The notes below the pieces were generated by a model. That model was given only the letters and a program-made list of their open reading frames with translations, was not told the origin of the DNA and did not search any database. From Hyphomonadaceae bacterium (GTDB lineage: Bacteria > Pseudomonadota > Alphaproteobacteria > Caulobacterales > Hyphomonadaceae): a stretch of DNA of 64,000 nucleotides. The stretch lies in the NCBI GenBank assembly GCA_947474455.1, contig CANJIL010000006.1, forward strand, positions 4,037 through 68,036, in the 5' to 3' direction. How positions within the stretch are numbered: the first letter of the stretch is position 1; each line of letters begins with the position of its first letter. Below, piece after piece: positions 6,441 to 26,755 of this stretch. The translations under genes were made by a program, and so were the position numbers.

Positions 6441-6690
6441 GGTCAGATCGGCATGGGATATTTCCGCGCGTCGTGCAGGCTGCCATTGTCCCGGCAGGCA
6501 CGAATGCTCCAGCTAGCGCTACTAGGATGCCTCTTGCGCGATTGCCCAGTCCGCGTCTCCGTCAAGCCAATCCGCGCACTGATACACTATGGATCCCATG
6601 CACCAATAACTCATGTGCGGCAACGCGGCGCGGAGCCGTCGTTTCGCGATGCGCTAGGGTTTTCGCGTTGCTGGGCAACTGGAGAGACGC

Positions 6691-7269
6691 ATGTCACCGG
6701 GCCACGTTGCGCCCCTGCGCGCGTTCCTTGCGGACCGGCCAGCGACATGGGGCCTTGCGGGCGTGCTGGCGGGAAGCTGGCTGATCGCCGCTTCCTCCTG
6801 GATTTCGACTCCGATGTATCCGGTGCCCATGACGCTGCAGACCTTCGCGATCCTGCTCGTCGCCGGCCTCGCCGGGGCGCGCCTCGCGGCGGCAAGCGTC
6901 ATCACCTGGCTCGCGCTGTCGGCGATAGGTCTGCCGCTGCTGGCCGACGGGGCAGGCGGCCTCGATCCATTCTCAGGCCCAACCGGCGGATATCTCGCCG
7001 GCTTCGTCATTGCCGCCTTCGCCTGCGGTTGGCTCACCGAAAAACCCGCCATGCGCGGCTGGCTCCCCATGATGGTCGTCTTTCTTCTCGGCCACGTCAT
7101 CATCCTCACCGCAGGCTGGCTCCGCCTCGTCGCGCTCCTCGGTCCGCAACCCGCTTGGGACATGGGCGTCTCTCCCTTCCTCGCCGGCGCCATCCTGAAA
7201 TCAGCCCTCGCCGTCGCCATGGTGAAACTCCTGGAGCCGTGGGTAAGGCGCGCGGTCAGGGTTGATTGA
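6691..7269 (+). CDS. bioY: biotin transporter BioY
   Basis: 192 aa, 5-6 TM. PVPMTLQTFAILLVAGLAG..GPTGGYLAGFVIAAF are characteristic BioY motifs. Confidence 0.85.
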   Translation: MSPGHVAPLRAFLADRPATWGLAGVLAGSWLIAASSWISTPMYPVPMTLQTFAILLVAGLAGARLAAASVITWLALSAIGLPLLADGAGGLDPFSGPTGGYLAGFVIAAFACGWLTEKPAMRGWLPMMVVFLLGHVIILTAGWLRLVALLGPQPAWDMGVSPFLAGAILKSALAVAMVKLLEPWVRRAVRVD

Positions 7270-12607: not shown

Positions 12608-13663
12608 GTGTTAAACCTCCCGAAAGCTCTCGGACTTATCCTGGCTCACATGCAGACCGCGGCAACAGCGGTCGTCACGTGGTGGTCGAGGATGTCTGTA
12701 GCCGACAAACGGCAGACCCGTCAGCGCGTGCTGACGATCGGCGCCTGCGCGGCCGTGTTCGCTTTCGGCGGGCCCCTCATTGCCCAGCGTTTCGGCGACC
12801 AGAAGGCCCAGGAGGCCTATCGTGCCGACGCTATCGTTCTCGCTCAATCGATCGCCGCCGAAGCCGCAGCCGACAGTCAGCAGCCCGTCCGCCTCGTCTC
12901 CTTCACCAACAAGGCCAGCCCGGCAGCGCTTCTCGATCATGTCTCCCACACTCCAGCCGCCGCCGACCCCGGCGTTAGCTTGCGCTCGCGCGATAGTTTC
13001 GCCATCCGCGGCCTTGTTGGCTTCACGCTTGAGAACCTCGGCAATGGTCGCAACGGGCAGGACGAGGCCGATTGCCTCGCCGAGGCCGTTTACTACGAGG
13101 CCCGCTCGGAAGACACGATCGGCCAGATGGCCGTCGCCGAAGTCGTCATGAACCGCGTGCGCGACCCGCGCTTCCCCAAGACCGTGTGCGCCGTGGTTTA
13201 TCAGGGCCAGTACCGCGACACCGGCTGCCAGTTCACCTTCACCTGCGATGGCTCCCTCGCGCATAAGCCGGAGCGAGAAGCCTGGGACCGGGCCAAGGCC
13301 GTGGCGCTCAACGTGATGCTCGGCCTCAACAAGCCCGTCACCAACCAGGCGACCCACTATCACACCGACTATGTGAACCCGTACTGGAAGGCGGGCATGG
13401 TCGAGACGGATGTCGTCGGCACGCACATCTTCTACCGCTTCCCGAGGACCGGCAAAGAGTGGACCGGCGCCCGCATCGCGCTTGAAGCGCAGGAGATGCA
13501 GGAAAGCATTGTCCCGGCGCCTGTCTTACTCACGGTGGGCGGCGAGGAACCTGCCACGCTCGAAGCGTCGGTAACCGGCTCGCTCGTTCCGGTATCGGTC
13601 GAGCCAGCCGACATCCCGGCCATCGTGCCTGCGACCCAAGTCGCCGACACTCGGCCGCTCTAA
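12608..13663 (+). CDS. cell-wall hydrolase, SleB/Hydrolase_2 domain, with N-terminal membrane anchor
   Basis: 351 aa. CLAEAVYYEARSE..QMAVAEVVMNRV..FPKTVCAVVYQ..QFTFTCDG..ATHYHTDYVNPYW is the SleB-type domain. GTG start at 12608; later starts are possible. Confidence 0.8.
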   Translation: MLNLPKALGLILAHMQTAATAVVTWWSRMSVADKRQTRQRVLTIGACAAVFAFGGPLIAQRFGDQKAQEAYRADAIVLAQSIAAEAAADSQQPVRLVSFTNKASPAALLDHVSHTPAAADPGVSLRSRDSFAIRGLVGFTLENLGNGRNGQDEADCLAEAVYYEARSEDTIGQMAVAEVVMNRVRDPRFPKTVCAVVYQGQYRDTGCQFTFTCDGSLAHKPEREAWDRAKAVALNVMLGLNKPVTNQATHYHTDYVNPYWKAGMVETDVVGTHIFYRFPRTGKEWTGARIALEAQEMQESIVPAPVLLTVGGEEPATLEASVTGSLVPVSVEPADIPAIVPATQVADTRPL

Positions 13664-14523
13664 CTCTCGAAGTCCAATCCAACATCAAGATTGATCGCCG
13701 AGTGGGTCAGCGCGCCCGCAGAAATGTAATCCACGCCGGTCAGCGCGATTGCCTTGACCGTCTCAAGCCGAACGCCGCCTGAAGCTTCGGTCTTGGCAAT
13801 ATCACCAACGATCTCCACAGCCTCCGTCAGCATCGCCACAGACATGTTATCGAGCAGCACCGCATCCGGCCTGTAGGGCAGGGCCTCGCGCAGCTGCCCC
13901 AGCCCATCCACCTCGATCTCGATTGCGCGCAGATGCCCAACCGCCGCCCGCGCTCGCTTGAGGGCGGTCGCAACCCCGCCCGCGGCCGCAATATGATTGT
14001 CTTTGATCAGGATCGCATCATCCAGCCCCAGCCTGTGGTTCAACCCGCCGCCCAGCCGCACCGCGCGCTTCTCCAGCGCCCGGAACCCTGGCGTCGTCTT
14101 CCGAGTGCAGGTGACCTTGGCATTCGTTCCTTTCGCTTCAGCCACGAAGCGCGATGTCAGCGTGGCGACGCCCGACAGTGAGCCGACAAAGTTCAGCATC
14201 ACGCGCTCGGCCATCAGAACCGATCGCGCCGATCCTTCGACCCGGACGAGTGCATCGCCCTTGGCGAACGGCACGCCCTCTTGAACCAGGGTCGTCCACA
14301 CCGCCTCCGGATCGACCAGGCGCAGCGCCAGCCGCGCCGCATCATAGCCGGCGGCGACACCCCCCTCCCGCGCCGCCATCACCGCACGCATGCGGGCGCC
14401 GCCGGGGATCACCGCATCGGTCGTGATGTCTCCCCCCCGTCCGAAGTCTTCGGTGAGGGCGAGGCGAACGAGCGGCTCGATGATAACGTCGGGCAAGAAA
14501 GGAATGGGCAGGAGGTCGCTCAC
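13660..14523 (-). CDS. nadC: nicotinate-nucleotide pyrophosphorylase (carboxylating)
   Basis: Track ORF 13660..14643. A GTG at 14523 preceded by GGAAGGAG lies 1 nt after the nadB TGA and gives ~287 aa. LTEDFGRGGDITT and the C-terminal TIM-barrel motifs are present. Confidence 0.9.
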   Translation of the reverse strand: MSDLLPIPFLPDVIIEPLVRLALTEDFGRGGDITTDAVIPGGARMRAVMAAREGGVAAGYDAARLALRLVDPEAVWTTLVQEGVPFAKGDALVRVEGSARSVLMAERVMLNFVGSLSGVATLTSRFVAEAKGTNAKVTCTRKTTPGFRALEKRAVRLGGGLNHRLGLDDAILIKDNHIAAAGGVATALKRARAAVGHLRAIEIEVDGLGQLREALPYRPDAVLLDNMSVAMLTEAVEIVGDIAKTEASGGVRLETVKAIALTGVDYISAGALTHSAINLDVGLDFES

Positions 14524-14524
14524 G

Positions 14525-16054
14525 TCAGACTCCTTCCGCGATTGCGGAATGCTGGATAAGGGGATCGCCGTCATCGCCACGGCGGATGAAGGTGCGATGG
14601 GGCGCAAGCGTCTCCGGATAATCCGACCGGTAGTGTCCGCCACGGCTCTCCAGCCGCGCCAGCGCTCCCGCCGCGATCAGCCGCGCCGCCATCAGGGCCC
14701 GCGCCGGCCCCACATTCGCGAACGCCGCCTCCATCCAGCCTAGCGTCGCCGCCAATCCGCGCGCCTCACGCACCACGCCCACTTGCGAATGCATCCGCTT
14801 GCGCAGCTCGATCATCGACAGCTCATTCATCTCCGGCGGCGCAATCGCGCTGGCGCCAATCGGTGGTGTCAGCGTTGCGCCCTTCAGTCTGCGCGCAGCC
14901 CGCTCAGCGAACACAACAGCTTCAAGCAGCGAGTTCGACGCCAGCCTGTTCGCGCCATGCGCACCGGTCGAAGCGCTCTCGCCGCAGGCTGACAGGCCCT
15001 CAAGCGAGGTCCGCGCCCACAGGTCCGTCACCACCCCGCCCATGTGATAGTGCATCGCCGGCGCAACCGGTATCGGCGCCACGCGGGGATCGACGCCTGC
15101 CGAACTGCAAGCGGCGAACACGGTGGGGAAATGATCCGGGAAATGCGCGCCGATGGCCTTGCGGCAATCGAGAAACGCCCCGCGTCCTGCTTCCCGTTCG
15201 GCGTGGATCGCGCGCGCAACCTCGTCGCGCGGCGCCAGGTCGCCAAGCTTGTGATAGTCGCCCATGAAGGCGCGGCCAGTCGCATCGATGAGATGCGCGC
15301 CCTCGCCACGCAGCGCTTCGGTCGCCAGAGGCGCCGGGTCGCGACCGATGTCGATTGCCGTTGGGTGGAACTGTACGAACTCCGGATCGCCAATCAGCGC
15401 ACCTGCGCTATAGGCCATCGCCACTGCATCGCCCTGCGAGGATTTTGGATTGGTGGTGATCGCATAGAGTCCGCCCGATCCGCCCGCGCACAGGATTGTC
15501 TCTGCTGCACGAAGCTGGAAAGGGGCGCCGGCCTTCCAACGCGCCAGCACGCCAGCCACGCGCCCATTCGAATCCTGCAGGAGCGCCAGCGCTTTCACCC
15601 CCTCAATCATCTCGATGTGGGAGGATGCGGAGACAGCATAGGCAAGCGCTTCCATGATCGCCTTGCCGGCAAGGTCGCCAGACACCCGCGCCACACGCGC
15701 GCGCGAATGCGCCGCCTCAAGCGACAACGCCAGCTCGCCATCGGCGGTGCGGTCGAAGGGGACTCCAAGCTCCAGCAGGTCGCACACGCGCGCCGGTCCA
15801 TCCTGCGCGATCAGCTTGGCCACGACCGGATCAACAATGCCTGCGCCTGCGGCGAGCGTGTCGGACGCGTGTAGCGAGGGTTCATCCTCGAGCGACAGCG
15901 CTGCGGCAAGGCCGCCCTGCGCCCAGGCGGATGCAGCCGCCTGTCCGATGGGTGCGAGCGCGATGACGGTGCATCGCCGTGGCGCCAGTTTGAGCGCGAG
16001 GAAAAGGCCAGCCAGTCCTCCGCCGACGATGAGGATGTCGCGAGTGGACGTCAA
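14525..16054 (-). CDS. nadB: L-aspartate oxidase
   Basis: 509 aa. FAD motif DILIVGGGLAGLFLAL, RSHSxxAQGG-like region, HYxMGG (HYHMGGV), LESRGGHYR near the C-terminus. Confidence 0.93.
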   Translation of the reverse strand: MTSTRDILIVGGGLAGLFLALKLAPRRCTVIALAPIGQAAASAWAQGGLAAALSLEDEPSLHASDTLAAGAGIVDPVVAKLIAQDGPARVCDLLELGVPFDRTADGELALSLEAAHSRARVARVSGDLAGKAIMEALAYAVSASSHIEMIEGVKALALLQDSNGRVAGVLARWKAGAPFQLRAAETILCAGGSGGLYAITTNPKSSQGDAVAMAYSAGALIGDPEFVQFHPTAIDIGRDPAPLATEALRGEGAHLIDATGRAFMGDYHKLGDLAPRDEVARAIHAEREAGRGAFLDCRKAIGAHFPDHFPTVFAACSSAGVDPRVAPIPVAPAMHYHMGGVVTDLWARTSLEGLSACGESASTGAHGANRLASNSLLEAVVFAERAARRLKGATLTPPIGASAIAPPEMNELSMIELRKRMHSQVGVVREARGLAATLGWMEAAFANVGPARALMAARLIAAGALARLESRGGHYRSDYPETLAPHRTFIRRGDDGDPLIQHSAIAEGV

Positions 16055-16061
16055 GGGATCA

Positions 16062-16535
16062 TCACCCGACCAGATCCAGACGCTTGCGGAATTTCACGGG
16101 AGCCTGACCATACGATTTGAACATCCCATCCATCTCGTCGCCCCGCCAGTTGATCTTCACGGAGAAATGGTCGGCCGCGTAGCGTTCGCGCATCAAGTCC
16201 AGCATATCGGCGGGCTCGACATTGGCGATCTTGTCCACGTGGCTGGTGATCGTTACGTCGTAACCTGTCTGCATGGCGACGCAGCTCTGCTCGGTGTGTA
16301 CTGCCTTCGGCAGGCGAAGCGTGCAGGCCCACACGGCTTTGAATGTGCATTTGTAAGCCTTGTCCGCCGTTTGCGTGATCGTCATGTCGCCATCCAGAGT
16401 GCAGCCATAGCCCATCGGTTTGGTCTTGAACCCCCAGCTGCCGACAGGCGTAGGCGCCTTCTTCATCTGCGCATCGGCGCTTTGCAATGCGAGCGTTGCC
16501 GCGACGATGCAGGGTATGGTGGTGCGCCATGTCAC
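16062..16535 (-). CDS. exported 4-Cys protein, paralog 3 of 3 (unknown family)
   Basis: 157 aa. Signal peptide ..ATLALQSADA, then GSWGFKT, CTLDGDMTITQT, YKCTF, C, QSCVA, and ends DLVG. GTG start overlaps the stop of the upstream paralog (GTGA). Its stop is 7 nt before the nadB start. Confidence 0.7.
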   Translation of the reverse strand: MTWRTTIPCIVAATLALQSADAQMKKAPTPVGSWGFKTKPMGYGCTLDGDMTITQTADKAYKCTFKAVWACTLRLPKAVHTEQSCVAMQTGYDVTITSHVDKIANVEPADMLDLMRERYAADHFSVKINWRGDEMDGMFKSYGQAPVKFRKRLDLVG

Positions 16536-17017
16536 CCGACGAGATCCTGGTCGCGCCAGAAACGGACGCCCGCCTCGCGGGTGGAGTGGAAGACGCCAAT
16601 CAGCTCGCTCTTCTCCGGGCGCACCTTGAAATGATCTGGAGCGTAGGCCTGCGTGGCGAACATCGAGGTTTTGAAATCAGCCGGGCCGGCATCGAGGATG
16701 CGATCGATGGTCGAGGTGATAACGATCTCGCCCTTTTCCATCTTCGCTGTGCAGGACTGCTGCACCCTGGTGAAGGTGGGCCCTTCCGCGCGGGCGCAGT
16801 CCTCACGGCTGACGAATCTGCACGCATAATCGCTCGTCTTCGCAGTGCGTGTGAACGTAATGTCGCCGGTGATGATGCAGCCCTTGTTGGGCAGCACGTC
16901 GGTCTTGAACTTCCATGCGCCGGAAATGTCCGTCTGCATCTGCGCCGACGCCGGCCCGGCGGAGACGAGACCAACGGCGAGAATGGCCGCGAGGCCGAGA
17001 CGTCGAGCGCGCTTCAT
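16532..17017 (-). CDS. exported 4-Cys protein, paralog 2 of 3 (unknown family)
   Basis: 161 aa. Signal peptide MKRARRLGLAAILAVGLVSAGPASA, then GAWKFKT, CIITGDITFTRT, YACRF, C, QQSCTA, RFWRDQDLVG at the C-terminus. Confidence 0.75.
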   Translation of the reverse strand: MKRARRLGLAAILAVGLVSAGPASAQMQTDISGAWKFKTDVLPNKGCIITGDITFTRTAKTSDYACRFVSREDCARAEGPTFTRVQQSCTAKMEKGEIVITSTIDRILDAGPADFKTSMFATQAYAPDHFKVRPEKSELIGVFHSTREAGVRFWRDQDLVG

Positions 17018-17038
17018 GTCGTCCCCGCGATCGCCATG

Positions 17039-17518
17039 CTATCCGACCAGTTCGACATCGCGCCAGAACCGCGCCTTCAGGTGGCGCTGTTCGTCGTAAT
17101 GCTCGCCGTTCATCTCAGCCTTGTTGTTAGACAGCTGCACAATGAAGTTGTCAGCGAGATACCAGTCTTCGGGATTTGGAACCGCCGGGCGGCGTTCGAT
17201 CACCTTGTTGACTTTCGATTTGATCGCGACCTGCTTGCCGATGCGCTGCGCGGTGCACGACTGCTGCACCTTGATGTACAAATTGCCGTTGATCTTCCCG
17301 CAGATCTGCTCGGACACGAACAGGCAGGTGTAGGTGTTCTTGATCTTGGTCTGGGTGAAGGTCATCCGGCCGGTGATCTGGCAGTCGTTGTCAGCGAACT
17401 TCGACGTGTCGAACAACCAGTCGCCCGCGATGTCATCCGCAAACGCCGGCATGGCGGCGGTCAGCACCATGGTGCAGCCAAAGATTGCCGCCAGCCGTTT
17501 GAGCGCGCTGCGCTTCAT
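17039..17518 (-). CDS. exported 4-Cys protein, paralog 1 of 3 (unknown family)
   Basis: Internal ATG of track ORF 17039..17722 gives 159 aa. MKRSALKRLAAIFGCTMVLTAAMPAFA, then GDWLFDT, CQITGRMTFTQT, YTCLF, C, QQSCTA, RFWRDVELVG. The ATG overlaps the nadA TGA (ATGA at 17515-17518). Confidence 0.75.
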   Translation of the reverse strand: MKRSALKRLAAIFGCTMVLTAAMPAFADDIAGDWLFDTSKFADNDCQITGRMTFTQTKIKNTYTCLFVSEQICGKINGNLYIKVQQSCTAQRIGKQVAIKSKVNKVIERRPAVPNPEDWYLADNFIVQLSNNKAEMNGEHYDEQRHLKARFWRDVELVG

Positions 17519-18657
17519 ATGATCTCGACCGGAACGAAGACGTCGCGCCCCACCTTGAACTTCGGAAACACTTTCGGCTGCTTCAGCGCGAGCATCGCGT
17601 CGATCGCGGCCTTGGCGCGAATGCGGATGTCCTCCGGCACCGTCACCTCGTGCTTCATGTGCAGGAGAGCGTCGTAGATGTTCTCCAGCGAGATGCGCTT
17701 CATGTGCGGGCAGAGGTTGCATGGCTTCACGAACTCCACGCCGGGGTTGTCCGCGGCGACGTTATCGCTCATCGAACATTCGGTCAGGAGGACGACCTTC
17801 CGGGCGCCGGACTCCTTGACGTGGTTCGACAGGGCCGATGTTGAGCCTGCAAAGTCGGCTTCTTCAAGGACATCCGGAGGACATTCCGGGTGCGCCAGCA
17901 CAATGGTTCCCGGGTGGGCGTCACGGATTTGCCGCACATCCTCGCCCGTGAACTTCTCGTGGACCTCACAATGACCCTTCCATGCGATGATTTTCACGTC
18001 CGTGTTGGCGGAGACGTTGCGGGCGAGGAACTCGTCGGGAACCATGATTACACGGTCGACGCCCCACTCTCTGGAGACATGTTCCACGACCTGCGTCGCG
18101 TTGGACGAGGTGCAGGTGATGTCGCATTCGGCTTTCACATCAGCCGTCGTGTTGACGTAGGTGACGATCGGCAGGCCGGGGTATTCCTTCCGGATCAGGC
18201 GCACGTCCGCCCCCGTGATCGAGGACGCCAGCGAGCATCCCGCGCGCATGTCGGGGATCAGCACTGTCTTGTCAGGGCTCAGGATTTTCGAGGTTTCGGC
18301 CATGAAATGCACGCCGGCCTGGACGATGACCTTCGCGTTGGTTTTCGCGGCTTCCCGGGCGAGCTGGAGCGAGTCGCCACGGAAATCGCCGACCAGACGG
18401 AAGACGTCCGGCGTCATGTAATTGTGGGCGAGGATAACGGCGCCGCGCTGCTTCTTGAGCTTGTTGATGTGGAACACGAAGGGCGCGACCGCCGGCCACT
18501 CCATCGGCGTCACGAAGTCCTTCACCTGCTCATAAAGGTGGTCCACAGCGGCCTTCACCTCGTCGGTGTAGGCAAGCCCGCGTTTCTCTGCGGCGGTGGG
18601 CCTGCGGCGGGCGGCGGGTATATCGCAGCCGGGACCGAATTCGATAACGCGGGCCAT
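17515..18657 (-). CDS. nadA: quinolinate synthase
   Basis: Track ORF 17515..18792. The ATG at 18657 (MARVIEFGPG..) is preceded by GGAAGGA. The 45 upstream codons contain two palindromic boxes and look like a leader. AVILAHNYM, VHFMAETSKIL and CPHMK-type motifs are present. Confidence 0.9.
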   Translation of the reverse strand: MARVIEFGPGCDIPAARRRPTAAEKRGLAYTDEVKAAVDHLYEQVKDFVTPMEWPAVAPFVFHINKLKKQRGAVILAHNYMTPDVFRLVGDFRGDSLQLAREAAKTNAKVIVQAGVHFMAETSKILSPDKTVLIPDMRAGCSLASSITGADVRLIRKEYPGLPIVTYVNTTADVKAECDITCTSSNATQVVEHVSREWGVDRVIMVPDEFLARNVSANTDVKIIAWKGHCEVHEKFTGEDVRQIRDAHPGTIVLAHPECPPDVLEEADFAGSTSALSNHVKESGARKVVLLTECSMSDNVAADNPGVEFVKPCNLCPHMKRISLENIYDALLHMKHEVTVPEDIRIRAKAAIDAMLALKQPKVFPKFKVGRDVFVPVEII

Positions 18658-18698
18658 ATCAGTCCTTCCGGCTCCGACAGGGCGGGGATCGCCATTGT

Positions 18699-18715
18699 AC
18701 TCATAGTGAGCATAA
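18699..18715 (-). promoter_or_regulatory. candidate NadQ operator, proximal box (TTATGCTCA-CTA-TGAGT on coding strand)
   Basis: Imperfect palindrome CTCA-N3-TGAG flanked by TTATG, centred about 50 nt upstream of the nadA ATG at 18657. Near-identical to the box at 18778-18794. Confidence 0.5.
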
Positions 18716-18777
18716 GATGGGCCCGAAAAAATGCCTTTCAAGCGAAAGGCGGCATCCGGTTTGTCAGCCCCACTTAA

Positions 18778-18794
18778 ACTCAACTTGAGCATAA
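18778..18794 (-). promoter_or_regulatory. candidate NadQ operator, distal box (TTATGCTCA-AGT-TGAGT on coding strand)
   Basis: Same 9-mer TTATGCTCA and the same TGAGT half-site as the proximal box, 79 nt further upstream. Lies between the nadQ stop (18848) and nadA. Confidence 0.5.
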
Positions 18795-18847: not shown

Positions 18848-19801
18848 TCAGCCGTGCGGGGTCTGCACTCCAGACACATGCCCCTCGCGCAGCGCCTCGT
18901 GGCGGAAACGATAGAGTTCGGCAGGCCGGCCGCCAGTCGCCTGAGTAAAGGCGCCAAGACCTACGACAAGCTCAGCGCGATCAAGCGCGCGGCGGAAATT
19001 CTGCTTGTGCAGAGGCAGGCCGAGAATTGCCTCGACGACTCTCTGCAGATCGGAAAGCGTGAAACGCTCCGGCATAAGCTCGAAGACCACCGGACGGTAT
19101 TTGATCTTGCCGCGCAGCCGGCCGATGGCGGTCGCGAGGATGCGGCGATGATCCGAGATCATCGCTTCGCCAAGCGCTGCGGGCGGGAGTTTCGAGCGCT
19201 TGCGGCCGCTATCGCGTGACGCCTCCGAGGCAAGGCCCGCTTCGTAAAGCAGCTCGTAGCGCTCCAGCGTCCGTTCCTCGATCCATGGCTGGCCATCGAG
19301 GCCGAAATCGCGGTGCACGCGGGCGAACCGGTCGCTGGCGTTTTTACCGCCTTGATCCGCCCACTCGACGAGGGCAGGAGCGATGGCCTGGTCAATAATT
19401 TCCGGGCGGCCTTTGCGGTGGTCCTCCCACGGGAAATAGCGATGCCAGTCGCGCCACACGGCGTCGAAGGCGGAGATATCCGTGCGCTCCGGCGTCAGGC
19501 CAAGATAGCCTACCGAGATAAGCCTCGCTCCCGAAGGCGCATCGTCGAGTTCGGCCTGTGGCAGCTCACGGCCGAGGTCGCCAAAAGTGTAGAGTTGTTC
19601 GACATAGCCCGGCTCAAACCCCGTCTGGGCGTGCACCCACTCGCGCAGGCCCAGTTCGAACGTTCGATGACCTGCCGGATCAAACCGGCCGTGCGGCAGG
19701 CCCGTTGCGCCGTCCGCATGCCGCGTCGCCAGAGCGTAGGGCGCATCGGCATCGGCGGCGACGATCACAGCGGACAGGCCGACAGCAATTGGCGTGGTCA
19801 T
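18848..19801 (-). CDS. nadQ: Nudix-related transcriptional regulator of NAD synthesis (NadQ/NrtR-like)
   Basis: 317 aa. N-terminal Nudix-like fold without an obvious intact Nudix box. The C-terminal winged-helix segment FTLSDLQRVVEAILGLPLHKQNFRRAL is typical of NrtR/NadQ regulators. Sits immediately upstream of nadA. Confidence 0.7.
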   Translation of the reverse strand: MTTPIAVGLSAVIVAADADAPYALATRHADGATGLPHGRFDPAGHRTFELGLREWVHAQTGFEPGYVEQLYTFGDLGRELPQAELDDAPSGARLISVGYLGLTPERTDISAFDAVWRDWHRYFPWEDHRKGRPEIIDQAIAPALVEWADQGGKNASDRFARVHRDFGLDGQPWIEERTLERYELLYEAGLASEASRDSGRKRSKLPPAALGEAMISDHRRILATAIGRLRGKIKYRPVVFELMPERFTLSDLQRVVEAILGLPLHKQNFRRALDRAELVVGLGAFTQATGGRPAELYRFRHEALREGHVSGVQTPHG

Positions 19802-20322
19802 GGCCGGCTGCTGAAAGAAGAGGGAATCGAGAAGGCCCGCGTCTCACCGGATATCTCGCCCCGCCCGATGGCGGCGACAGCCTTCGCCATGCGTCCGCCG
19901 CGCCCGAGAACATCGTCAGCATGGCCAACGAGCCGTGCGTTTGGCCAAGCCATGGGCGAAGCTTTGCGGATCGTCCAGGCGATCTCCTCTTCATCCGTCC
20001 TGGGATTGTGGACGCAGGCCGTGATGAAGGCGCTCGCGGTGGAGCGGGAAATCCCGGCCCAGCAATGGATCAGCAGAGGGGCGACCCTGTCCCAGCCCTC
20101 GACGAACCGGATCACCCGTTCAGCATCGGTTTGGCTGGGCGCCTGCCAGTCGCCAATGTCGGCCGTGATGTCGTGGACTGCCATCTGCAGGTGGAGATCT
20201 CCGCCCACGTCGGCGAAGTGAGGAAACGAATCGTAAGGACTTAGCAGGCTAACCACACGCGACGGCTTCAGCCTCCTGGCCATTTCGGGAGCGGCTGCGA
20301 GAGAGCAGATCCAGATTGTCAT
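19798..20322 (-). CDS. PTP-loop (HCxxGxxRS) phosphatase-family protein
   Basis: 174 aa. LLIHCWAGISRSTA is a Cys-based phosphatase P-loop. Its stop overlaps the nadQ start by 4 nt. Confidence 0.75.
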   Translation of the reverse strand: MTIWICSLAAAPEMARRLKPSRVVSLLSPYDSFPHFADVGGDLHLQMAVHDITADIGDWQAPSQTDAERVIRFVEGWDRVAPLLIHCWAGISRSTASAFITACVHNPRTDEEEIAWTIRKASPMAWPNARLVGHADDVLGRGGRMAKAVAAIGRGEISGETRAFSIPSSFSSRP

Positions 20323-20331
20323 GGCGCGAGA

Positions 20332-20979
20332 CTAACCCTTTGCTGAGGCTGCATCGACCTCGGTTATCAGCGCCGCGAAACGCCGCAGGAAAAGCGTCTG
20401 GGCCTCGGTCGGTGACAGCGGCGTCATGTCGGGAGGTCCGCCCGGCGGCGGGTGGCCGAAGAAGTTCAGCGCCTCGTCAATATCGAAGCCGGCGAGCCGG
20501 GTTGCTTCGAAGAAGGCCGCGCACTGGTCTGCTTGTTTGACGCGCGCCTTCGCGTCGTCGCTCATATGCGGCGTCAGACCAAAGCGCAGACGGATGGCGG
20601 CCTCAAGCCGCGCTTCGAACTGGCGATAGTCGACGCCGAGCGCCGTCTTGAAGGGCGAGATCATGTCGCCGATCACATACTCGGGCGCATCGTGCAGCAG
20701 CGCGCCGAGCAGGTCGGAAGCGGAAGTCGTCGACCAGAGACGGCCGACAAGAGATTCGACCAGTACGGAATGCTGCGCCACGGAAAAAGCATGCTCGCCT
20801 GTAGTCTGGCCGTTCCAGCGTGCAACGCGCGCAAGGCCGTGCGCGATATCCTCGATCTCGATGTCGAGAGGAGAGGGGTCAAGCAGATCAAGTCTGCGGC
20901 CTGAAAGCATGCGCTGCCAGGCTCGCGGCGAGCCCGGCGTAAGTGTCGTTTTCCAGCTGCTGGATCCGCTCTTTCCCAT
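20332..20979 (-). CDS. HD-domain phosphohydrolase (YfbR-like 5'-nucleotidase family)
   Basis: Track ORF 20332..21036. AWQRMLSGRRLDLLDPSP..IEDIAHGLARVARWNGQT..AQHS..LLHDAPEYVIGD shows the H..HD..D metal ligands. The start at 20979 (M20) is chosen so the conserved AWQRML lies inside. Stop is 9 nt before the phosphatase start. Confidence 0.8.
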   Translation of the reverse strand: MGKSGSSSWKTTLTPGSPRAWQRMLSGRRLDLLDPSPLDIEIEDIAHGLARVARWNGQTTGEHAFSVAQHSVLVESLVGRLWSTTSASDLLGALLHDAPEYVIGDMISPFKTALGVDYRQFEARLEAAIRLRFGLTPHMSDDAKARVKQADQCAAFFEATRLAGFDIDEALNFFGHPPPGGPPDMTPLSPTEAQTLFLRRFAALITEVDAASAKG

Positions 20980-21069
20980 AAGACAGCACCTGCCATCGAA
21001 ATAGTTTCGGCTGCAAGCGGAACCGCAGACTCGCAATCACGTTCGCCATGTGCAGAACGCCAGCGCTCC

Positions 21070-26668: not shown

Positions 26669-26755
26669 GCGGGCGTGGTGGAACTGGTAGACGCAGCGGA
26701 CTTAAAATCCGCTTTCCGCAAGGAAGTGCCGGTTCAAGTCCGGCCGCCCGCACCA
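26669..26755 (+). tRNA. tRNA-Leu (anticodon UAA), CCA encoded
   Basis: Cloverleaf read by eye. Acceptor GCGGGCG/CGCCCGC, anticodon stem AGCGGA/TCCGCT with loop CTTAAAA, long variable arm TTCC-GCAA-GGAA, T-arm GCCGG-TTCAAGT-CCGGC, then A-CCA. Confidence 0.95.

Follow-up and report, generated by a model that had tools for sequence, protein, structure and literature searches.

That an exported binding protein can be co-regulated with genes of nicotinamide adenine dinucleotide (NAD) synthesis is, as a general idea, already known. In Bordetella, the periplasmic proteins Bug69 and Bug27 are encoded in nadQ-nadC clusters and bind quinolinate at sub-micromolar affinity (PMC11452294), and in Enterobacterales the NadR regulon has the pair nadA-pnuC as its conserved core (PMC5343134). 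Here, a 64,000-nucleotide (nt) stretch of a Hyphomonadaceae bacterium (assembly GCA_947474455.1, contig CANJIL010000006.1, positions 4,037 to 68,036 of the forward strand), referred to below as the window, was investigated for three tandem genes, named X1, X2 and X3. These lie between nadA and nadB and encode small proteins with predicted signal peptides and four cysteines. A sequence-only reading of the region had pointed them out as paralogs belonging to no named family, and we followed them with homology searches, structure prediction and a survey of related loci.

The X locus resembles that of the TctC-type Bug proteins in that an exported soluble protein is encoded with NAD genes under NadQ control, with no transporter partner nearby and with a function largely inferred from genome context; Bug proteins bind quinolinate in vitro (PMC11452294). 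The folds are unrelated, however, the Bug proteins being two-lobed Venus-flytraps of about 300 amino acids (aa) and X a predicted 130-aa beta-barrel. Bug69 and Bug27 belong to Betaproteobacteria reliant on quinolinate salvage, whereas X occurs in organisms with the full de novo pathway, between nadA and nadB and in one to five tandem copies. The parallel with nadA-pnuC is that a de novo NAD gene is followed by an envelope salvage component under the control of an NAD repressor, a role which X might fill by analogy (PMC5343134). PnuC is a polytopic inner-membrane transporter regulated by NadR, while X is predicted to be a soluble exported barrel regulated by NadQ.

Taken jointly, the anatomy of the system, which comprises a predicted exported barrel, membership of the nad operon and of the NadQ regulon, and family-wide linkage to nad genes, can be accepted with high confidence. 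The role is proposed far more tentatively. X1-X3 may bind small ligands in the periplasm and so capture pyridine precursors when NAD runs low, an argument by analogy to which we assign a probability of roughly 35%. The operon genes and their regulator are as follows (positions are those of the window).

18848..19801, minus strand: nadQ, NAD biosynthesis transcriptional regulator, 317 aa; last gene of the upstream p234-p174-nadQ cluster

17515..18657, minus strand: nadA, quinolinate synthase, 380 aa from the conserved ATG; Pfam NadA 2.8e-109, NCBIfam NF006878 above cutoff

17039..17518, minus strand: X1, predicted exported 4-Cys beta-barrel protein, 159 aa, ATG start

17438-17518, minus strand: predicted X1 signal peptide, residues 1-27, with predicted cleavage between AFA and DD

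16532..17017, minus strand: X2, paralog of X1, 161 aa, ATG start; predicted signal peptide residues 1-25 (cleavage between ASA and QM)

16062..16535, minus strand: X3, paralog of X1, 157 aa, GTG start; predicted signal peptide residues 1-22 (cleavage between ADA and QM)

14525..16054, minus strand: nadB, L-aspartate oxidase, 509 aa, TTG start; NCBIfam NF005701, 683 bits vs a cutoff of 528, 1.6e-205

13660..14523, minus strand: nadC, quinolinate phosphoribosyltransferase, 287 aa, GTG start; TIGR00078, 299.5 bits vs a cutoff of 198.4, 1.9e-89; nadC lengths across the loci 283-290 aa

The sequence-only reading had described three open reading frames (ORFs) of about 160 aa between nadA and nadB, tightly coupled to the operon. 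The Pfam and NCBIfam identification of nadA, nadB and nadC and the junctions themselves, read directly from the sequence, bear this out. The nadA and X1 genes overlap by 4 nt, the nadA TGA and the X1 ATG sharing ATGA (17518-17515); a gap of 21 nt follows between X1 and X2; X2 and X3 again overlap by 4 nt, with the GTG start of X3 overlapping the X2 stop (GTGA, 16535-16532). Between the X3 stop and the nadB TTG at 16054 lie 7 nt, and a single nucleotide separates nadB from nadC, whose GTG at 14523 is preceded by GGAAGGAG. The X genes are translationally coupled within a nadA-X(n)-nadB-nadC operon. The longest nadA ORF (425 aa) is too long and covers the regulatory region; the conserved start, kept across loci, is the ATG at 18657 (MARVIEFG). 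Promoter-like and terminator-like sites inside the operon occurred only in chance-level counts, and from these counts and the short gaps, co-transcription of the X genes with nadA, nadB and nadC is very likely.

The regulator encoded upstream of nadA is, by its sequence matches, NadQ and not NrtR proper. Its 317 aa match PDB entry 7q91, 'NADQ transcription factor', over the full length (E-value, E, 3.3e-83), and only the C-terminal winged helix matches NrtR models (Pfam NrtR_WHD, 4e-22). The NadQ operator consensus is ttATRCTCannntGAGYATaa (PMC5343134). The window contains two matches to it, against 0.02 expected, and both lie between nadQ and nadA, on either side of a predicted hairpin.

18774..18794, no strand assigned: NadQ box 1, a 21-base-pair (bp) palindrome, TTATGCTCAAGTTGAGTTTAA (minus strand), with one mismatch to the consensus; overlaps a -10-like TATGCT

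18695..18715, no strand assigned: NadQ box 2, TTATGCTCACTATGAGTACAA (minus strand), with one mismatch; about 40 nt upstream of the nadA start

18733..18750, minus strand: conserved 7-bp hairpin, GCCTTTC gctt GAAAGGC, with a T7 run after it; terminator- or attenuator-like, located between the two NadQ boxes

Two NadQ boxes were found upstream of nadA in every nadA-containing locus examined (32 aligned loci and the distant ones), and a promoter-like site (18817-18788) lies near box 1 in the window. Two predicted operators ahead of the operon would place the X genes in the NadQ regulon, so that their expression is expected on release of NadQ repression, at times when the cell is in need of NAD. 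Consistent with this, the NadQ regulon reconstructed in 2016 for Hyphomonas neptunium ATCC 15444 includes a 'hypothetical protein HNE_0691' (PMC5343134, supplementary table). HNE_0691 is probably the X homolog of a cultured strain. Literature searches on HNE_0691, and on nad operons together with lipocalins, returned nothing relevant.

Between the promoter-like site and nadA, the hairpin was paired in 92.5% of cells across 21 sequences, with compensatory changes at two pairs and a covariation score of 0.155, compared to 0.074 after shuffling. Its position suggests attenuation, or insulation of the operon from nadQ read-through. The 3' arm of the hairpin holds a conserved TTGAA which is retained even in distant loci lacking the hairpin, and this element may instead be a -35 box. 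A search of Rfam with the part of the window between 12 and 22 kilobases (kb) at E<=1 gave no match, including to the nadA-motif NAD+ riboswitch, and the intergenic hairpin matched no Rfam family.

The linkage of X to nad genes was then examined in relatives. One genome per species (185,579 species) was scanned with X1-subfamily patterns, and metagenome loci and distant family representatives were mapped in addition; such scans detect only pattern-matching relatives, so that species counts are lower bounds. The genome scan returned at least 40 species, all uncultured Hyphomonadaceae, Caulobacterales or unclassified Alphaproteobacteria, plus one Hyphomonas sp. metagenome-assembled genome (MAG). 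Every locus that was long enough showed the same order, namely an HD-domain gene, a DSP-phosphatase-like gene, nadQ, nadA, one to five X genes, nadB and nadC, with a cell-wall hydrolase gene lying opposite. X copies adjoined nadA and/or nadB in 39/40 species genomes, the remaining one being a truncated contig with two X copies only (L043). X1 was the most conserved and the core paralog: it was always the first gene after nadA and the only copy in single-copy loci. Most two-copy loci had X1 and X3, so that X2 was missing from many of them, and bigger arrays added X2-type or X3-like copies, the last copy before nadB being of the X3 type in most multi-copy loci. In one genome (L045, Hyphomonas sp. 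ih12, CP051229.1, 6914-7390), the first X copy is split over two frames and the second is intact; the split reflects either a frameshifted or pseudogene copy or a mistake in sequencing the MAG.

In all eight metagenome loci, nadA and/or nadB adjoined X or the locus was too short to tell, and seven of nine distant representatives, which are 25-35% identical to X1 and accompanied by a nadB of about 60-67% identity, adjoined nadB or nadA. Orders among the distant loci included nadA-X-X-nadB, nadA-X-nadB and X-X-X-nadB-nadC. In another (P0306) a cut 443-aa gene, probably nadB, comes after three X genes, and a further one has nadA, four small genes (one confirmed X and three family-sized genes without a Pfam match) and a cut 495-aa gene, also probably nadB. 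The surroundings of the core arrangement varied. One lineage (L048) showed clpP ... nadA-X-nadB-nadC without nadQ nearby. In two related loci, L052 (5390-7601) and L053, the order was HerA-like ATPase, TlpA-like Redoxin, X and nadB, with X and nadB overlapping by 4 bp; the L052 lineage lacked both an upstream nadA and any NadQ box within 6 kb, which shows that X stays with nadB even where nadA and the operators are elsewhere. A 268-aa alpha/beta-hydrolase gene lay between the last X and nadB in two of the eight metagenome loci (L054, 5479-6285, and L057), and the nadA-nadB gap therefore tolerates extra genes. Genes that lie between nadQ and nadA in some loci were checked for transporters and proved to be an alpha/beta-hydrolase and an opposite-strand signal-peptide protein of unidentified family. 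A locus of Hirschia sp. (L050, MAG contig PAQI01000011.1) was ordered nadQ-nadA-X-Macro-nadB-nadC. Its 176-aa Macro-domain gene (ADP-ribose binding or processing; 6462-6992) overlaps the X stop and is a further passenger of the nadA-nadB gap related to NAD metabolites.

Across the roughly 60 loci examined, the sole exception to nad linkage was an X pair that follows a split TPP-enzyme gene (TPP_N-TPP_C-X-X). X stands beside nadB and/or nadA in all other loci, and the arrangement is ancestral and clade-wide. The sequence-only reading, which had proposed this survey, had taken the three genes as an insertion between nadA and nadB; their position was right, while the notion of a local insertion gives way to that of an ancestral operon component of the clade. 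None of the outcomes it had named as contrary evidence, such as homologs scattered away from nad genes, lacking signal peptides or a match to a characterised family unrelated to NAD, was encountered.

X1-X3 are real genes under purifying selection. X1 shares 36% identity with X2 (E 7e-30) and 31% with X3 (E 7e-14), which puts their paralogy, as judged from sequence comparison, well above chance. Ratios of nonsynonymous to synonymous substitution rates (dN/dS) against orthologs in related genomes were 0.07-0.16 for X1, compared to 0.10-0.13 for nadA and 0.06-0.13 for nadB, so the constraint on X1 equals that on nadA. X2 (0.15-0.31) and X3 (0.24-0.44) are under weaker constraint than X1 and still under purifying selection. 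The GC content at third codon positions of X1-X3 (0.77-0.85) was similar to that of nadA and nadB and thus gave no sign of recent transfer. An identical (100%) copy of the X1 protein is encoded in a Hyphomonadaceae MAG (locus tag ABL956_10720).

The X family is undescribed, unnamed and lineage-restricted, with no close solved relative of its fold. X1-X3 had no Pfam match at E<=1 and no NCBIfam or PADLOC match. The family profile run against PDB sequences returned only noise (a red fluorescent protein, E 0.4), and named public homologs were all annotated as 'hypothetical protein'. A profile search of 1.84 billion cluster representatives gave 340 at E<=1e-3 and 216 at E<=1e-10, which puts the family at about 340 clusters at 50% identity, all from Hyphomonadaceae-like Alphaproteobacteria. 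Almost all members are 140-185 aa long, a near-uniform length that gives no sign of genuine domain fusions. Two long matches were set aside; one looks like a false positive from a repeat protein and the other like a chimeric ORF. Even the most distant members retain a signal peptide, the G-x-W-x-F-x-T strand, four Cys, Q-x-C-T-A, Y-A-x-D-(N/H)-(F/W) and an F-x-R near the C-terminus, and four polar residues (Q86, Y120, D123 and R153) are nearly invariant across the family.

Export and cysteine content were assessed with a heuristic scan of 300 family-sized proteins, 286 of which carry the GxWx[FYVW] motif. Among these motif-bearing members, a hydropathy of at least 1.8 in the signal-peptide h-region was found in 278/286 (~97%), a net-positive n-region in 268/286 (~94%) and an AXA-like site ahead of the GxW strand in 283/286 (~99%). 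The n/h/c character of the signal peptides is conserved across the family and their sequence is not. X1, X2 and X3 all show these features of a Sec signal peptide and are predicted to be Sec-exported. Neither RR pairs, as for twin-arginine translocation (Tat), nor lipobox-like strings were conserved over the family, and the Cys in the X1 signal peptide is likewise not conserved, so X1 is not a lipoprotein. Exactly four Cys follow the GxW motif in 280/286 members, with the spacing C-x17/18-C-x7-C-x10-16-C. The features that the sequence-only reading had listed for the three proteins were recovered throughout: the signal-peptide strings it quoted, the first strands GDWLFDT, GAWKFKT and GSWGFKT, the four Cys at nearly fixed spacing and the (D/E)LVG C-termini are all present, and its failure to place them in a named family agrees with the Pfam, NCBIfam and PDB sequence searches.

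AlphaFold2 was used to model X1. The full-length model had a mean predicted local distance difference test score (pLDDT) of 86, with disorder confined to the signal peptide, and the mature protein reached a pLDDT of 93.7 and a predicted template modelling score (pTM) of 0.84. Both models showed eight antiparallel strands in up-and-down order and one 4-residue helix between strands 5 and 6. On these models, the X proteins are eight-stranded up-and-down beta-barrels of about 130 residues after export. By the strand register of the models, Cys 46 and 73 (strands 2/3) and Cys 65 and 88 (strands 3/4) stand opposite each other on adjacent strands and probably form two cross-strand structural disulfides, C46-C73 and C65-C88. 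Foldseek comparison with the PDB gave nothing below E 1e-3. The best template modelling (TM) scores, 0.50-0.56, were to small meander barrels, namely the barrel domain of quinohaemoprotein amine dehydrogenase, Cap15, ToxS, erythrocruorin linker barrels and nitrophorins. Individual scores were 0.52 for ToxS, 0.55/0.65 for the barrel of the cyclic-dinucleotide receptor Cap15 and 0.50 for a nitrophorin, with nitrophorins and C8gamma spanning 0.44-0.50; fatty-acid-binding proteins (FABPs), VtrC, UnaG and apoM scored lower.

The modelled fold thus falls in the broad calycin-like class by general topology only. It shares the eight-stranded antiparallel up-and-down barrel with the calycins (lipocalins, FABPs, ToxS/VtrC, nitrophorins and Cap15), its first-strand GxW resembles structurally conserved region 1 (SCR1) of lipocalins, and ToxS/VtrC are likewise bacterial calycin barrels in the periplasm. 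X nevertheless gives no significant hidden Markov model (HMM) match to any calycin family and has a signature of its own, with four Cys, QSCTA and YAxD(N/H)(F/W). No lipocalin family was among the 25 families listed from a Pfam scan of 127 members at E<=10; only the SCR1-like GxW is present. Of the lipocalin-like character suggested for the first strand by the sequence-only reading, therefore, the barrel topology stood in the AlphaFold and Foldseek results. The likeness goes no further than topology: there is no lipocalin HMM match, TM scores are near 0.5, and the X1 models lack the C-terminal helix which packs on the lipocalin barrel.

If X proteins capture pyridine precursors, the mature proteins would fold in the periplasm as calycin-like ligand-binding barrels and serve as an envelope arm of the NAD regulon. 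They would capture an exogenous precursor, which may be nicotinate, nicotinamide, nicotinamide riboside or quinolinate, and either hold it or hand it to a transporter of the inner membrane whose gene lies elsewhere. Different paralogs may have different ligands, or they may cooperate. Because X would be made when NAD synthesis is de-repressed, its ligand should be related to NAD supply, and an exogenous pyridine precursor would be the most economical candidate. NadQ control and the published precedents (PMC5343134, PMC11452294) make scavenging more plausible. A bolder version is rather unlikely on present evidence: X would constitute a new class of periplasmic binders of vitamin B3 and NAD precursors, a disulfide-stapled mini-calycin with paralogs diverged for nicotinate, nicotinamide, nicotinamide riboside and quinolinate. 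In this version, X would be comparable in function to avidins for biotin and would provide oligotrophic Hyphomonadaceae-like bacteria with NadQ-controlled scavenging or hoarding that is non-homologous to known salvage components.

Several observations weigh against precursor capture, and some of them fit a different account, in which X is an exported envelope protein with a job unrelated to NAD, for example hydrophobic ligand binding or envelope maintenance. X would have entered the nadA-nadB gap in the ancestor of the clade, duplicated in place and been kept since rearrangements of an essential operon are selected against; we regard this history as the main rival, only slightly less probable than precursor capture. 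No transporter gene, for salvage or otherwise, was consistently linked to X in the mapped loci, and X-bearing organisms have a complete de novo pathway, so that a need for scavenging is not obvious. All X loci come from one alphaproteobacterial clade whose nad operon is syntenic, and a gene is hard to remove from the middle of an essential operon, which could partly account for the conserved position. Unrelated-looking passenger genes (Macro-domain, alpha/beta-hydrolase) occupy the same gap, between X and nadB, in some lineages, and the X pair of the TPP-enzyme locus lies outside any nad context. The inward residues of the first strands, judged by sequence periodicity, are mostly hydrophobic, and the ligands of the closest structural neighbours are lipids, bile salts or haem, not small polar pyridines. 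An unrelated job fits poorly, on the other hand, with a constraint on X1 that matches nadA and with expression that would depend on NadQ de-repression, and internal promoter-like sites are at chance level only. X also remains the gene next upstream of nadB, its stop codon often overlapping the nadB start, where nadB identity has fallen to about 60% and that of X to 25-35%, and this adjacency persists even where nadA or nadQ is missing. The NadQ regulon membership is shared ground with a further account, which appears improbable to us. Here X would have an NAD-related role other than precursor capture: sensing or buffering external pyridines or nucleotides in the periplasm in the manner of ToxS or VtrC, processing extracellular NAD or nicotinamide mononucleotide (NMN), or handling exported quinolinate. 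The nearest folds do include the sensory barrels ToxS and VtrC and the nucleotide-binding Cap15, and the near-invariant Q86, Y120, D123 and R153 could make a specific site. However, no ToxR- or VtrA-like membrane partner is encoded nearby, X has neither a catalytic motif nor an enzyme family match, and TM scores of about 0.5 indicate shared topology only.

Membership of the Inh/APRin/LupI family (PF02974), which would make X a distant periplasmic metalloprotease inhibitor, was suggested by the most recurrent weak match of the Pfam scan (5/127 members at E<=10, best E 0.0053). These proteins too are small eight-stranded barrels of the periplasm; they carry a signal peptide, their first strand reads 'aGxWxl', and strand 2 opens with a Cys engaged in a disulfide. 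The motif 'AGxWxL...C.L' is common to X and these inhibitors. Profile-profile alignment (hhalign) against APRin, Inh and LupI gave, however, a probability of just 6.6% over 20 columns of the first strand; no Inh-family structure was among the best 50 Foldseek matches, and the X profile did not retrieve Inh proteins from PDB sequences at E<=10. Three Inh-family sequences share a conserved N-terminal SSLxL trunk, the inhibitory part that inserts into the active site of the protease, and X has nothing equivalent. X moreover has two probable disulfides instead of one, is about 25 residues longer and has no serralysin-type protease gene among its mapped neighbours. With PF02974 matches that are sub-threshold only, we rejected membership of the family, and a role of this kind is very improbable. 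Similarly remote is the prospect that X uses its four Cys as a thiol-redox or metal-binding protein, or serves as a cytoplasmic scaffold for NadA and NadB. The family retains the Cys with few or no exceptions, the gene immediately upstream of X in one lineage encodes a TlpA-like Redoxin, and the X gene sits between the genes of two enzymes that must pass on unstable iminoaspartate. Against this, X has no CxxC or other redox motif, and its Cys are placed on neighbouring antiparallel strands with the spacing typical of cross-strand structural disulfides, so the redox idea gains nothing. Family-wide signal peptides place the domain outside the cytoplasm, apart from NadA and NadB.

Genes flanking the operon were also examined. 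Ahead of nadQ are a 174-aa DSP/PTP-phosphatase-like gene (19798-20322, minus strand; weak Pfam matches to Tc-R-P, DSPc and PTP-NADK) and a 234-aa HD-domain gene (20332-21036, minus strand; weak match to YfbR-like 5'-deoxynucleotidase), both of which precede nadQ in nearly all loci of the clade. Neither gene had an NCBIfam match or matched the PADLOC defence models, and by their sequence matches the two products could be undescribed phosphohydrolases related to NAD or nucleotides whose genes accompany that of the regulator. On the other side, a gene for a 351-aa Hydrolase_2 (SleB-like cell-wall hydrolase) protein (12608-13663, plus strand) is convergent to nadC, and its position, kept in nearly all related loci, is probably synteny only. 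The sole Rfam gathering-level match in the whole window was a tRNA gene (26669-26752, plus strand).

NAD metabolism is among the best-mapped areas of bacterial physiology, yet a conserved and selected family in the middle of its core operon lacks a name, a Pfam model and a proposed role, and a conserved secreted family in the heart of nadABC would surprise NAD specialists. The family is restricted to one alphaproteobacterial lineage, within which linkage and regulon point to an unrecognised envelope component of NAD metabolism. The question can be tested now: X proteins are small and soluble and should purify easily, and HNE_0691 offers a candidate in the cultured Hyphomonas neptunium, for which genetic tools exist. 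If X does not bind pyridine precursors, the locus would clearly illustrate the lasting retention of an unrelated gene within an essential operon. If it does, X would represent a new, non-homologous type of periplasmic vitamin-binding protein and would add an envelope step to NAD homeostasis in abundant aquatic bacteria.

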